From: Patescibacteria group bacterium
GTDB taxonomy: Bacteria > Patescibacteriota > Patescibacteriia > UM-FILTER-42-10
Length of the DNA stretch: 64,000 nt
Assembly: GCA_041666845.1 (NCBI GenBank)
Contig: JBAYGC010000003.1
Coordinates: 25,007-89,006 of the forward strand
Reading direction: 5' to 3'
The notes below the pieces were generated by a model that was not told where the DNA came from, ran no database searches, and was given only the letters and a program-made list of their open reading frames with translations. Within the stretch, counting starts at the first letter, position 1; every line of letters begins with the position of its first letter. This document shows positions 22,088 to 55,139 of this stretch, piece by piece. The position numbers and the translations under genes are program-made.

Positions 22088-22209
22088 GATTGCAAGGAAA
22101 GAGGTATAGACCCGAAACCAAAAACAACCAGCATGCAAACAAAAAACCGATATTCTATCGGCTTAATGGGGTCCCCAAAAATCGCAAAGCGGTTTTTGGG
22201 GAAAGCAAT
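22088..22209 (+). repeat. tRNA-associated repeat (family RptA), partial copy 1, with hairpins CCGATATtctATCGG and CCCCAAAAAtcgcaaagcggTTTTTGGGG
   Basis: ~85% identical to 22270-22390 of copy 2 and to the 31.6-kb and 32.0-kb copies. Confidence 0.55.
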
Positions 22210-22224
22210 ATTTTGAAAATATTA

Positions 22225-22390
22225 CCGAGCAAATCAGGAGCGCATCCTGAGCAAAGGCGAAGGATAGCACGGATTTGCGAGGAAAGGGGCACAGACCCGC
22301 AACCAAAAAATTGTTTCAGAAATGAAAAAACCGAGTTATACTCGGTTTCATCGGGCCCCCAAAAATCGCAAAGCGGTTTTTGGGGAAAGC
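22225..22390 (+). repeat. tRNA-associated repeat RptA, copy 2 (full length, begins CCGAGCAAATCAGGAGCGCA)
   Basis: Shared blocks CCGAGCAAATCAGG.GC.CA, GGATTTGC, GGGGCCCCCAAAAA.CGCA.AGCGGTTTTTGGGGAAAG. Confidence 0.55.
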
Positions 22391-22547
22391 GGGATATTCG
22401 TGAAAGGTGAAATCCTGAATAATAATTCAGGATGGAACCTGAAACGAATAATCACGCGTGGTCGGGGTGGCGGGACTTGCCCGCCAAAGGCGGGTCCGCC
22501 TCTGGCGGAAACCCTTTATAACTAATGGAAATTTGAAATGTTTTGAT

Positions 22548-22623
22548 TGGTCGGGGTGATCAGACTTGAACTGACGACCTCATCGTCCCGAACGATGCGC
22601 GCTACCAACTGCGCCACACCCCG
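22548..22623 (-). tRNA. tRNA-Pro (anticodon CGG), CCA encoded
   Basis: Cloverleaf folded by hand: acceptor CGGGGTG/CACCCCG, D-arm GCGC-AGTTGGTA-GCGC, anticodon stem CATCG/CGATG with loop TTCGGGA, T-arm GGTCG..TTCAAGT..; 76 nt. Confidence 0.85.
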
Positions 22624-22658
22624 ATTATTAACAAAAACTTTTTTCGCCTAAGATGTAG

Positions 22659-22717
22659 CCAACTGCCCGTCCGCCACGGCTATCGCCGCAGGCGTGCCGG
22701 GCGGGCGCCACACCCCG
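22659..22717 (-). other. partial duplicate of tRNA-Pro nt 1-12 + 40-nt insert + CAGTTGG (D-loop) located ~35 nt upstream of the intact tRNA-Pro
   Basis: Minus-strand reading: CGGGGTGTGGCG-[cccgcccggcacgcctgcggcgatagccgtggcggacggg]-CAGTTGG. Same architecture as 55080-55139 next to tRNA-Lys. Confidence 0.5.
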
Positions 22718-41953: not shown

Positions 41954-42028
41954 TGGTACCGCCTAGGGGAATCGAACCCCTGTTGCCAGGATGAGAACCT
42001 GGCGTCCTAACCACTAGACGAAGGCGGC
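41954..42028 (-). tRNA. tRNA-Glu (anticodon CUC)
   Basis: GCCGCCT-TC-GTCT-AGTGGTT-AGGAC-G-CCAGG-TTCTCAT-CCTGG-CAAC-AGGGG-TTCGATT-CCCCT-AGGCGGT-A-CCA; 75 nt. Confidence 0.85.
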
Positions 42029-54952: not shown

Positions 54953-55028
54953 TGGTGCGCCGTGAGGGATTCGGACCCCCGACCATCAGCTTAAAAGGCT
55001 GCTGCTCTACCAACTGAGCTAACGGCGC
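54953..55028 (-). tRNA. tRNA-Lys (anticodon UUU), CCA encoded
   Basis: GCGCCGT-TA-GCTC-AGTTGGTA-GAGC-A-GCAGC-CTTTTAA-GCTGA-..GGGGG-TCCGAAT-CCCTC-ACGGCGC-A-CCA; 76 nt. Confidence 0.85.
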
Positions 55029-55079
55029 ATGTTCTTATTTAATCAGATTTTTAATGAATTTAATCCGTCAGCGGAATCA

Positions 55080-55139
55080 CCAACTGCCTGTCCGCCATAG
55101 CATCACTGTAAGCGATGCGTAGGAGGAAGCTAACGGCGC
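55080..55139 (-). other. partial duplicate of tRNA-Lys nt 1-12 + 41-nt insert + CAGTTGG, ~50 nt upstream of intact tRNA-Lys
   Basis: Minus-strand reading: GCGCCGTTAGCT-[tcctcctacgcatcgcttacagtgatgctatggcggacagg]-CAGTTGGTG. The insert ends ..TGGCGGACAGG, as in the tRNA-Pro copy (..TGGCGGACGGG). Confidence 0.5.

Follow-up and report, generated by a model that had tools for sequence, protein, structure and literature searches.

GC-rich hairpins between nucleotides 12 and 13 of partial tRNA gene copies in a CPR bacterium and in other bacterial genomes

In several bacterial phyla there are tRNA gene copies that carry a very small conserved hairpin at one fixed internal position. A replacement copy always accompanies them, and the copies are sometimes nested two deep around an intact tRNA. 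Two of these units were studied in a 64-kb stretch of DNA (hereafter the window) from a CPR bacterium, on a Patescibacteria contig close to Kerfeldbacteria, where they lie upstream of a tRNA-Pro and a tRNA-Lys gene. They are probably relics of a recurrent process of insertion and replacement that acts at the DNA level and targets tRNA genes. This reading draws on the anatomy of the units, their recurrence before many tRNAs in several phyla, the compensatory changes in their stems, the target-derived flanks, the empty sites in relatives and the rapid decay, from which we infer a position-specific insertion or replacement of the homing or integration kind acting on tRNA genes. On this reading the units of the window, although they belong to the pre-tRNA leader, serve no purpose in their own right.

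Results

Anatomy of the two units in the window

Both units are on the minus strand (22717-22659 for Pro and 55139-55080 for Lys) and have the same layout, in which nucleotides (nt) 1-12 of the adjacent tRNA are followed by a hairpin of 40 or 41 nt and by CAGTTGG, i.e. tRNA nt 13-19 (Table 1). A preliminary description of this DNA had reported exact 12-nt copies of the adjacent tRNA, in tRNA orientation, inserts with similar 3' ends and a hairpin, and CAGTTGG followed by a gap before the intact tRNA. Our analysis agrees on each of these points: the copies are identical to the tRNA over their full length, and both inserts end in GGCGGAC(G/A)GG and fold as hairpins, the outer stem of the Lys insert already containing one T.C mismatch. 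The full 40-nt Pro insert is CCCGCCCGGCACGCCTGCGGCGATAGCCGTGGCGGACGGG. The breakpoint, described as falling exactly between nt 12 and 13, does so at Lys; at Pro it is ambiguous by one base, because the insert begins with C, which is also tRNA nt 13 (13-mer match).

Table 1. Positions of the tRNA genes, remnants and hairpins at the Pro and Lys loci of the window.
Feature	Coordinates	Strand	Remarks
Pro stump, copy of tRNA-Pro nt 1-12	22706..22717	(-)	CGGGGTGTGGCG; 12/12 identical to tRNA at 22623..22612
Pro hairpin insert, 40 nt, GC-rich	22666..22705	(-)	CCCGCC...GGCGGACGGG; between tRNA nt 12 and 13; R1 37.2 bits
Pro resumed segment CAGTTGG	22659..22665	(-)	Identical to tRNA-Pro nt 13-19; copy breaks off after it
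Pro spacer, 35 nt, AT-rich	22624..22658	(-)	Not conserved; different 52-nt spacer in L190
Intact working tRNA-Pro(CGG)	22548..22623	(-)	ARAGORN and Rfam, 64.6 bits; nested between remnants
Pro double-hairpin module	22480..22514	(-)	GGGTT TCCGCC-AGA-GGCGGA CCCGCC-TTT-GGCGGG; directly precedes displaced 3' end
Displaced resident tRNA-Pro 3' end	22459..22479	(-)	T-loop C56 to CCA, CAAGTCCCGCCACCCCGACCA
Lys stump, copy of tRNA-Lys nt 1-12	55128..55139	(-)	GCGCCGTTAGCT; 12/12 identical, 15 nt with flank
Lys hairpin insert, 41 nt	55087..55127	(-)	TCCTCC...GGCGGACAGG; between nt 12 and 13; R1 56.4 bits
Lys resumed segment CAGTTGG, tRNA nt 13-19	55080..55086	(-)	Partly deleted in L203
Lys spacer, 51 nt	55029..55079	(-)	63% identical with indels, window vs L203
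Intact working tRNA-Lys(TTT)	54953..55028	(-)	ARAGORN and Rfam, 69.1 bits; 100% identical in L203

The 18-mer shared by the two units, TGGCGGACRGGCAGTTGG, occurs at exactly two sites in the 64 kb even when three mismatches are tolerated (chance expectation 0.07). Among the seven tRNAs of the window only those for Pro and Lys have a second copy of their 5' 12-mer; the match had been said to be specific to the adjacent tRNA, and indeed the five other tRNAs are without one. A covariance model made from natural units in other genomes (R1) retrieved only these two sites from the window, with the scores given in Table 1, and its next-best matches, at 16 bits or less, were ordinary tRNA 5' ends.

A GC-rich block downstream of the working tRNA-Pro (22514..22459), consisting of the double hairpin and a second tRNA-Pro 3' end, had not been noticed in the preliminary description. 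Eleven nucleotides of this displaced end match the 3' end of the working tRNA exactly.

Rfam 15 returned intact tRNAs only, both in a gathering-score scan of the whole window and in scans of both kinds of loci at relaxed E-values, the best non-tRNA match having an E-value of 0.65 or worse. Readings of the unit as a tmRNA-like, T-box-like or YrlA-like RNA were rejected for want of supporting features (best YrlA match, E = 2).

Occurrence in other genomes

The arrangement of tRNA nt 1-12, insert and CAGTTGG noted earlier in the window precedes tRNAs of nine isotypes at no fewer than 33 distinct loci, in CPR, Omnitrophota and Kiritimatiellaeota MAGs (loci outside the window are designated here by L numbers). 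At least 31 distinct unit sequences were collected upstream of Lys, Pro, Arg, Gly, Val, Thr, Met, Ala and Ile tRNAs, a sample skewed to tRNAs with a CAGTTGG D-loop, since the collection scans demanded this motif. The scan of reference genomes gave at least four units that proved genuine, the MAGs in question bearing the labels Omnitrophota (L009), Buchananbacteria (L013), 'Gammaproteobacteria' (L115, whose locus is syntenic with the CPR locus of the window) and Kiritimatiellaeota (L118); the remaining motif matches were discarded as chance occurrences, in high-GC genomes or in one conserved coding sequence. When the hairpin arms were also required, in the scan of metagenomes, at least 69 loci were found, about half of them real. 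The hairpin-plus-motif pattern had no match in 2.9 million viral contigs, and a phage origin was rejected. The recurrence of the same junction and hairpin before nine isotypes in many genomes, together with the empty orthologous sites, bears out the earlier suggestion of a site-specific footprint at the D-arm.

R1 recovered all 31 units as well as further ones outside the reach of the text pattern. Five of six such pattern-independent units are in sense orientation, and given this proportion and a single inverted copy (see below) an orientation-specific RNA role of the hairpin keeps a small probability.

Structure of the hairpin and covariation

The consensus unit consists of tRNA nt 1-12, YCCGCC, a 3-nt loop, a variable stem and loop, 3 nt, GGCGGA, CRGG, and the tRNA from nt 13 onward. 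The outer stem of the hairpin is thus conserved and the inner stem covaries, with a 3x3 mismatch loop between the two, and the length of the insert at nt 12/13 ranges from 26 to 62 nt across units. Pairing was evaluated on an anchored alignment of 31 units: paired bases were present in 92% of cells, compared with 33-50% when the partners were slid, and the covariation score was 0.185, compared with 0.084 for shuffled alignments, none of 500 shuffles reaching 0.185. All three pairs of the inner stem vary on both sides (CG17/UA10; UA13/CG8/AU2), and the unit of L013 has a compensatory change from C-G to T-A in its outer stem. The hairpin is therefore kept by compensatory change. The conservation of the outer stem and of CRGG across phyla requires either a recent horizontal spread or some constraint.

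A strand-specific RNA signal in the form of an excess of G.U pairs was sought in the stems of the 31 units and was absent. G.U pairs are no commoner than C.A mismatches, so that the tRNA-sense strand is not marked as the strand that folds.

The hairpin as an insertion into tRNA sequence

The segment that follows the hairpin is the D-loop of the neighbouring tRNA itself, even where this is not CAGTTGG (L013: CAGGGGTTA, as in tRNA-Ile(TAT); L133: CAGCCAGG and CAGCCAGGTAGA; L172: CAGCTGG), and in L159 a complete tRNA-Thr(CGT) body continues beyond the hairpin. Since this segment tracks the D-loop of the neighbouring tRNA, the hairpin is an insertion at 12/13. L159 encodes a sigma-70 region-4 protein and is bacterial, so that the idea of its belonging to an archaeon, which would have explained 'introns', was abandoned.

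The extent of the tRNA sequence after the hairpin varies from nt 13-19 in the window to nt 13-21, 13-37, 13-52 or 13-76 elsewhere. Partial copies reach about nt 37 in L183 and L133, with hairpins at 12/13 and 21/22, and about nt 52 in L131 and L139. A nearly full-length tRNA-Met copy in L155 has three hairpins, one at 12/13 and one each in the anticodon loop and the T-arm, and two of three tandem tRNA-Ile copies in L137 are disrupted. The additional hairpins of the longer copies share the YCCGCC...GGCGGR type, and the places where hairpins of this type were seen include nt 21/22, anticodon loops, T-loops and 3' remnants. In this series of decay the units of the window, which end at nt 19, are the most eroded.

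In L133 a hairpin of the Pro type is inverted at the 12/13 junction of a tRNA-Lys fragment. Its reverse complement is identical to the Pro hairpin at 37 of 39 positions, compared with 31 in the same orientation, where the baseline of the palindrome against itself is 30. Only one such inverted copy was found; it speaks for an event at the level of DNA.

The Pro locus in related genomes

Uninterrupted sites in relatives, which the preliminary description had proposed to look for, exist at both loci. At the uppS-tRNA-Pro locus, the sites of L193 (UppS 82% identical) and L206 (73%) are empty and contain a plain tRNA-Pro. L190 (UppS 81%) has a single intact tRNA-Pro whose nt 1-50 are those of the inner tRNA of the window and whose 3' end is the displaced piece CAAGTCCCGCCACCCCGACCA of the window (21/21); the T-stem differs on both strands (GTCAG/CTGAT in the window, GTGGG/CCCGC in L190). 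The flank cgcgtgattattcgtttcagg (cgcgtgat...) that follows the displaced 3' end in the window is also present in L190 and L193. Upstream of the L190 tRNA the unit is reduced to a stub, ACGGGCAGTTGGCT, which has lost the nt 1-12 part and is consistent with a deletion of 47 nt between ACGGG repeats.

In L204 (UppS 81%) the 5' part of the resident tRNA-Pro is fused to a foreign 3' part, and this chimeric tRNA is followed by a double hairpin, the displaced resident 3' end and the flank. The double hairpin (ATAAGGTTT CAGCC-AAA-GGCTG A CCAGCC-TCT-GGCTGG) is homologous to the module of the window, lies at the same junction and differs from it by compensatory changes in both stems. At the Pro locus of the window, the junction with the displaced 3' end falls at a CAAGTC repeat in the T-loop. 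Comparison of the two modules shows that the GGGTT preceding the double hairpin of the window is part of a conserved module, ATAA(A)GG(G)TTT-hairpin-A-hairpin; its interpretation as tRNA nt 51-55 was dropped because L204 places GGGTT within this module. With the same 3' end or flank carried by the orthologues in L190, L193 and L204, the outer 3' piece of the window is the end of the resident gene itself, and the working tRNA-Pro is nested between the remnants.

Other loci are nested as well. In L196 (UppS 79%) the anticodon loop of a tRNA-Pro-like gene contains another, complete tRNA-Pro. L172 is concentric in two layers: two 5' stumps precede an intact tRNA, and their two 3' counterparts follow it. 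In L115 the 5' unit and the 3' block form an acceptor stem of their own plus ACCA, and this outer acceptor (GGTCGCA/TGCGACC) is unlike that of the inner tRNA. A split, two-piece tRNA-like RNA around a tRNA was considered on the basis of L115 and rejected, because orthologues show the outer pieces to be ends of the ancestral gene and most units have no 3' partner.

The Lys locus in related genomes

L198 (DnaB 89% identical) and L115 have a plain tRNA-Lys and an empty site. The Lys unit of the window is 145 nt from the start of dnaB, and the tRNA itself is 166 nt from it in L198 and 183 nt in L115; by this measure the stump keeps roughly the ancestral spacing to dnaB. In L203, whose DnaB is 99% identical, identity to the window amounts to 93% in the upstream flank and 100% in the tRNA, compared with 66% for the hairpin and 63% for the spacer. 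The L203 hairpin has a 10-column deletion, and its conserved motif GGACAGGCAGTT is gone. This decay of hairpin and spacer beside a conserved flank and tRNA indicates that the unit is not under purifying selection in this lineage.

Coupling with tRNA duplication

The real loci and the window together have 24 duplicates of the 5' 12-mer among 64 distinct tRNAs, and no tRNA in unrelated control loci has a nearby copy, since L124 and L188, to which the four duplicates listed among the controls belong, are themselves copies of real loci. Every partial copy contains at least one GC hairpin and intact tRNAs contain none. The repeat measures 12-71 nt (12-15 nt in the window) and often runs upstream of tRNA nt 1, so that the promoter flank is duplicated as well. 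In all cases the repeats are separated by 0-220 nt of DNA. Four loci (L118, L121, L139 and L137) contain tandem arrays, and in several loci the 12-mer differs from the next tRNA.

Search for an enzyme

Clustering of the 293 ORFs located within 4 kb of units at 30 loci gave no recurrent integrase, recombinase or transposase, and the Pfam-annotated 20 kb around the Pro site contain no recombinase; an integrase or recombinase, for which the preliminary description had proposed to look, is thus lacking near both sites of the window. ORFs of the GIY-YIG family (PF01541; E-values down to 1e-17) are present in L013, L131, L133, L144 and L183. Small GIY-YIG ORFs adjoining tRNAs or remnants number five in 287 kb of real loci and none in 853 kb of control loci, an enrichment that may be partly taxonomic, as the real loci are mostly from CPR-like genomes and the controls are not. 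In L133 the GIY-YIG ORF begins immediately behind the stump with the hairpin and precedes the intact tRNA-Lys. The window contains no GIY-YIG gene, nor do most of the loci, and GIY-YIG nucleases are only a lead as candidate enzyme.

Discussion

Proposed origin of the units

In the process that we favour, an older copy of a tRNA gene would be split exactly between nt 12 and 13, in the D-stem, by a GC-rich imperfect palindrome of 30-60 bp and would decay to a 5' stump. A complete copy of the same tRNA just downstream does the work. At Pro the other end of the old gene has survived too, as nt 56-76 and the original flank behind the double hairpin. A disrupted copy would presumably be tolerated only because the replacement segment, or a whole tRNA, arrives or is selected with the event, and the enzyme would act in trans, a small GIY-YIG nuclease being a candidate. 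The hairpin may come first and the rescue follow, a cassette may carry both, or hairpins may colonise copies that are already dead.

More tentatively, and with the balance in our opinion somewhat against it, one may envisage an active cross-phylum system that invades tRNA genes, in which the YCCGCC...GGCGGR hairpin would be the recombination or insertion site and would bring or trigger the replacement copy. Its targets would be nt 12/13, nt 21/22, the anticodon loop and 55/56. If this were true, resident tRNA genes would be serially overwritten, giving rise to tRNA-in-tRNA nests, possibly driven by tRNA-associated GIY-YIG nucleases, and the system would constitute a selfish element of a new class, carrying as its cargo the very essential gene that it destroys.

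Alternative explanations

The repeats could also be att remnants of an element with a tyrosine integrase that inserted at the 5' end of tRNA genes (at Pro also at the 3' end), carried the replacement segment and later lost its body by deletion. Integration-derived tRNA gene fragments are pervasive (PMC9897764), and there is an archaeal precedent in Caldiarchaeum, where a 5' fragment of tRNA-Thr, a recombinase element and an intact tRNA lie together (PMC3293823). Here, too, foreign DNA is bordered by a directly repeated tRNA end and the tRNA is reconstituted, the displaced resident 3' end is joined at the CAAGTC repeat of the T-loop, and in L204 the foreign 3' part of the chimeric tRNA-Pro is followed by the displaced resident end. 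Such an origin accounts for the repeats and the displaced ends, but not for the internal hairpin, the resumption of the target, the multiple hairpins or the lack of an integrase, and we regard it as unlikely. The hairpin lies inside the fragment and target sequence continues beyond it (nt 13-21), an arrangement not expected of a crossover junction; one fragment may have two or three hairpins, each at another position of the tRNA; the repeats vary from 12 to 71 nt and take in the host promoter flank; only 0-220 nt separate them; and no integrase or recombinase recurs in about 30 loci or in the 20 kb around the Pro site. The remnants of a tiny integrative element and the homing-type insertion with target duplication envisaged in the preliminary description come near the data, and part from them at the hairpin inside the fragment and the missing crossover junction and integrase.

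A functional cis-acting leader, in which a half-tRNA decoy and a hairpin would regulate the processing or transcription of the downstream tRNA, for example by competition for RNase P or by alternative pairing with the tRNA 3' strand, is improbable. The preserved pairing and the conserved outer stem would suit a leader, as would the constant position of the unit, always on the tRNA strand and upstream, after a promoter-like flank common to relatives; the 12-mer is identical to the tRNA in about 20 loci, and the Pro leader folds more stably than shuffled sequence (z = -3.96). Against this, orthologous sites are empty in the closest relatives, with a stub only in L190, and in L203 the unit decays far faster than the neighbouring non-coding DNA and has lost the conserved motif. 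One hairpin copy is inverted (L133), identical hairpins are present at other places (nt 21/22, anticodon loops, T-loops, 3' remnants), G.U pairs are not in excess over C.A, and the 12-mer mismatches the next tRNA in several loci. The promoter-proximal decoy half-tRNA proposed earlier is contradicted by these absences and decay in the nearest relatives, by the inverted copy and by the hairpins at other positions.

That the hairpins are introns of bacterial tRNAs and are spliced out of the RNA, the interrupted copies being functional now or once, is very hard to believe: the full-length interrupted tRNA-Thr(CGT) of L159 and the almost full-length tRNA-Met of L155 would fit, and the insertion points (12/13, 21/22, anticodon loop, 55/56) lie in or beside loops and resemble archaeal non-canonical intron positions, but the copies of the window stop at nt 19 and cannot yield a tRNA, and nearly every interrupted copy is truncated and beside an intact one. 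By inspection, the 6-bp stem and symmetric 3x3 loop showed no bulge-helix-bulge geometry. The loci are bacterial, as judged from the sigma-70 region-4 protein of L159 and the bacterial L10 leader and DnaB of the window, and bacteria are not known to encode the splicing endonuclease. With 26-62 nt the inserts fall short of the core of a group I or II ribozyme (at least 200 nt), lie at nt 12/13 and not in the anticodon loop, and have no Rfam intron match. RNA-level splicing thus fails for the truncated copies of the window; for the rare full-length copies it may apply.

Comparison with known systems

Transfer RNA genes are classic landing sites of mobile DNA, and the known footprints are plain 3'-end repeats beside kilobase-scale islands. 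The insertion and replacement proposed here share with tRNA fragments left by integrating elements a partial tRNA end beside a reconstituted tRNA, a locus that varies between close relatives and, at the Pro locus and in L204, a displaced resident 3' end downstream. They differ in the 0-220 nt of intervening DNA, the lack of an integrase, the fixed internal hairpin after which the tRNA resumes, the possibility of several hairpins per fragment and the predominance of 5' fragments.

Rickettsia palindromic elements and bacterial REP/REPIN sequences are short mobile palindromes of a comparable kind. The hairpins described here are likewise short imperfect palindromes with a conserved stem, but the many dispersed extragenic copies typical of REP/REPIN or IS200/IS605-derived elements are lacking, as the 64 kb contain four such hairpins, each within tRNA remnants. 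Mobile GC-rich hairpins are also known as the GC clusters of yeast mitochondria (PMC4478555) and as the repetitive or double hairpin elements of sponges and fungi (PMC2800124). Common to these and to our units are short imperfect palindromes in a lower-GC genome with constrained stems and variable loops, presence/absence polymorphism in close relatives, insertion into structural RNA genes and the absence of an encoded enzyme. Those mobile hairpins are mostly intergenic, present in high copy number and not tied to one gene class, whereas here defined tRNA positions, a coupled replacement tRNA and a sequence family common to several phyla are found.

Free-standing GIY-YIG homing endonuclease genes are located near tRNA genes, as exemplified by segB in the tRNA cluster of phage T4, and in five of the related loci small ORFs of this family similarly adjoin tRNAs or stumps. 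Homing with co-conversion could account for replacement segments and chimeric tRNAs; however, it normally involves neither a hairpin nor a tandem partial duplication, and the window and most loci have no GIY-YIG gene. The attC sites of integrons also have a conserved outer stem, an unpaired spacer and a variable inner stem and loop, but this is a resemblance only, since the outer stem is YCCGCC/GGCGGA and not the GTTRRRY core and there is no integrase.

No description of the element in bacteria was found in the literature searched, and it has no Rfam match. None of the close analogues discussed here (tRNA fragments of integrating elements, mobile GC-rich hairpins of organelle genomes, disrupted archaeal tRNA genes) unites, in bacteria, a conserved hairpin specific to a tRNA position and a replacement tRNA that is adjacent or nested; this combination appears to be undescribed. 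R1 and the 12-mer-repeat signature provide a direct means to survey complete genomes and to seek the responsible enzyme. If the process is active, it would offer a mechanism by which tRNA genes turn over and are horizontally replaced in the streamlined genomes of CPR bacteria, and it would be a source of the tRNA fragments by which annotation is confused.

The disrupted tRNA genes of archaea likewise have short inserts at the D-arm, anticodon and T-loop, related between different tRNAs and with a proposed link to the integration of mobile elements; an intron has been reported at 24/25 (PMC3293823). The archaeal inserts are spliced via a bulge-helix-bulge and the genes are functional, whereas the hosts here are bacterial and the copies truncated and redundant. 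An active process of insertion and replacement would then be a bacterial counterpart to the disrupted archaeal tRNA genes.

A conserved non-coding stretch downstream of tRNA-Pro

The stretch of about 130 nt that directly follows the resident tRNA-Pro 3' end (the displaced nt 56-76 of an older gene copy) is near-invariant across the window and the orthologous uppS-tRNA-Pro loci L190 and L193, whereas UppS is only ~80% identical there. A hairpin with compensatory changes (CCCCAAAAA...TTTTTGGGG) lies within the stretch, which has a terminator at its end. The stretch looks like a conserved small RNA; no Rfam family was found above threshold. A diverged second copy lies nearby (see the table), and the ORFs 22090-22410 and 22322-22525 are probably not genuine but translations of the two copies.

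Features in the window and in loci of other genomes and metagenomes (L-numbers) compared with it
Feature	Location	Strand	Context
Non-coding stretch, ~130 nt	window 22327-22458	minus	directly 3' of resident tRNA-Pro 3' end
Diverged second copy of this stretch	window about 22090-22206		184 nt from first copy
Small GIY-YIG nuclease-domain ORF (PF01541)	L013 4045-4293		adjoins tRNA or hairpin-bearing stump
Same	L131 968-729		as above
Same	L133 about 9945-9688		as above
Same	L144 176-1		as above
Same	L183 about 6804-6538		as above
Second tRNA-Thr(CGT)-like gene	L159 6391-6511	minus	adjoins hairpin-interrupted tRNA-Thr(CGT)
Chimeric tRNA-Pro	L204 1929-2070
Nested tRNA-Pro pair	L196 3716-3918 (GCA_018813665.1, JAHJBG010000096.1)

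GIY-YIG ORFs and the hairpin element

PF01541 ORFs numbered 5 per 287 kb of loci bearing the unit (tRNA nt 1-12, hairpin insert and D-loop resumption), versus 0 per 853 kb of unrelated loci. At two of these loci (L133 and L144) the ATG of the ORF lies immediately 3' of a truncated tRNA copy.

When the hairpins of L121, L133, L144 and L169 were set against the 5' end of the window tRNA-Glu(CTC), the commonest hairpin 5' half, TCCGCCTTCGTC, was identical to nt 2-12 of this gene (5' end at 42017-42028; GCCGCCTTCGTCTAG), and the inner stem GTC/GAC matched a tRNA-Glu D-stem. One speculative reading takes the hairpin as a miniaturised tRNA-Glu-like acceptor plus D-arm.

The near-motif GGCGGACTGGCAGTTGG recurs within conserved protein-coding sequence of unrelated bacteria (L050, about 4212; L098, about 7718), and such occurrences are chance matches for any scan using the motif alone. 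The MAG that holds L115 (CAYRIU010000039.1), which has a plain tRNA-Lys, is labelled 'uncultured Gammaproteobacteria', probably through an error of binning or classification; its contig has 41% GC and shares synteny with the Patescibacteria locus of the window (dnaB-ybaB-recR-L21, tRNA-Lys).

Interrupted, chimeric and nested tRNA genes

An insert of about 46-53 nt interrupts the anticodon region of the second tRNA-Thr(CGT)-like gene of L159, which leaves this bacterial contig without an uninterrupted tRNA-Thr(CGT) copy. At a distance of 2 kb, a tRNA-Thr(TGT) has a unit of its own upstream.

The tRNA-Pro of L204, a uppS-tRNA-Pro locus, joins the resident-type 5' acceptor strand CGGGCTG to a foreign 3' part ending in GTCCTCGACCA, so that its acceptor stem has three mismatches. 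The resident 3' end that does match, CAGCCCGACCA, is found 38 nt further downstream. This chimera is still called by ARAGORN and may be non-functional.

At the orthologous L196, the anticodon loop of an outer tRNA-Pro-like gene (acceptor CGGGGAC/GTCCCCG) holds a complete tRNA-Pro(CGG). The two GC-rich arms that flank this inner gene, CCTGCCCGCC... and ...GGCGATGGCAGG CGGG, are complementary to each other and resemble the hairpin element.
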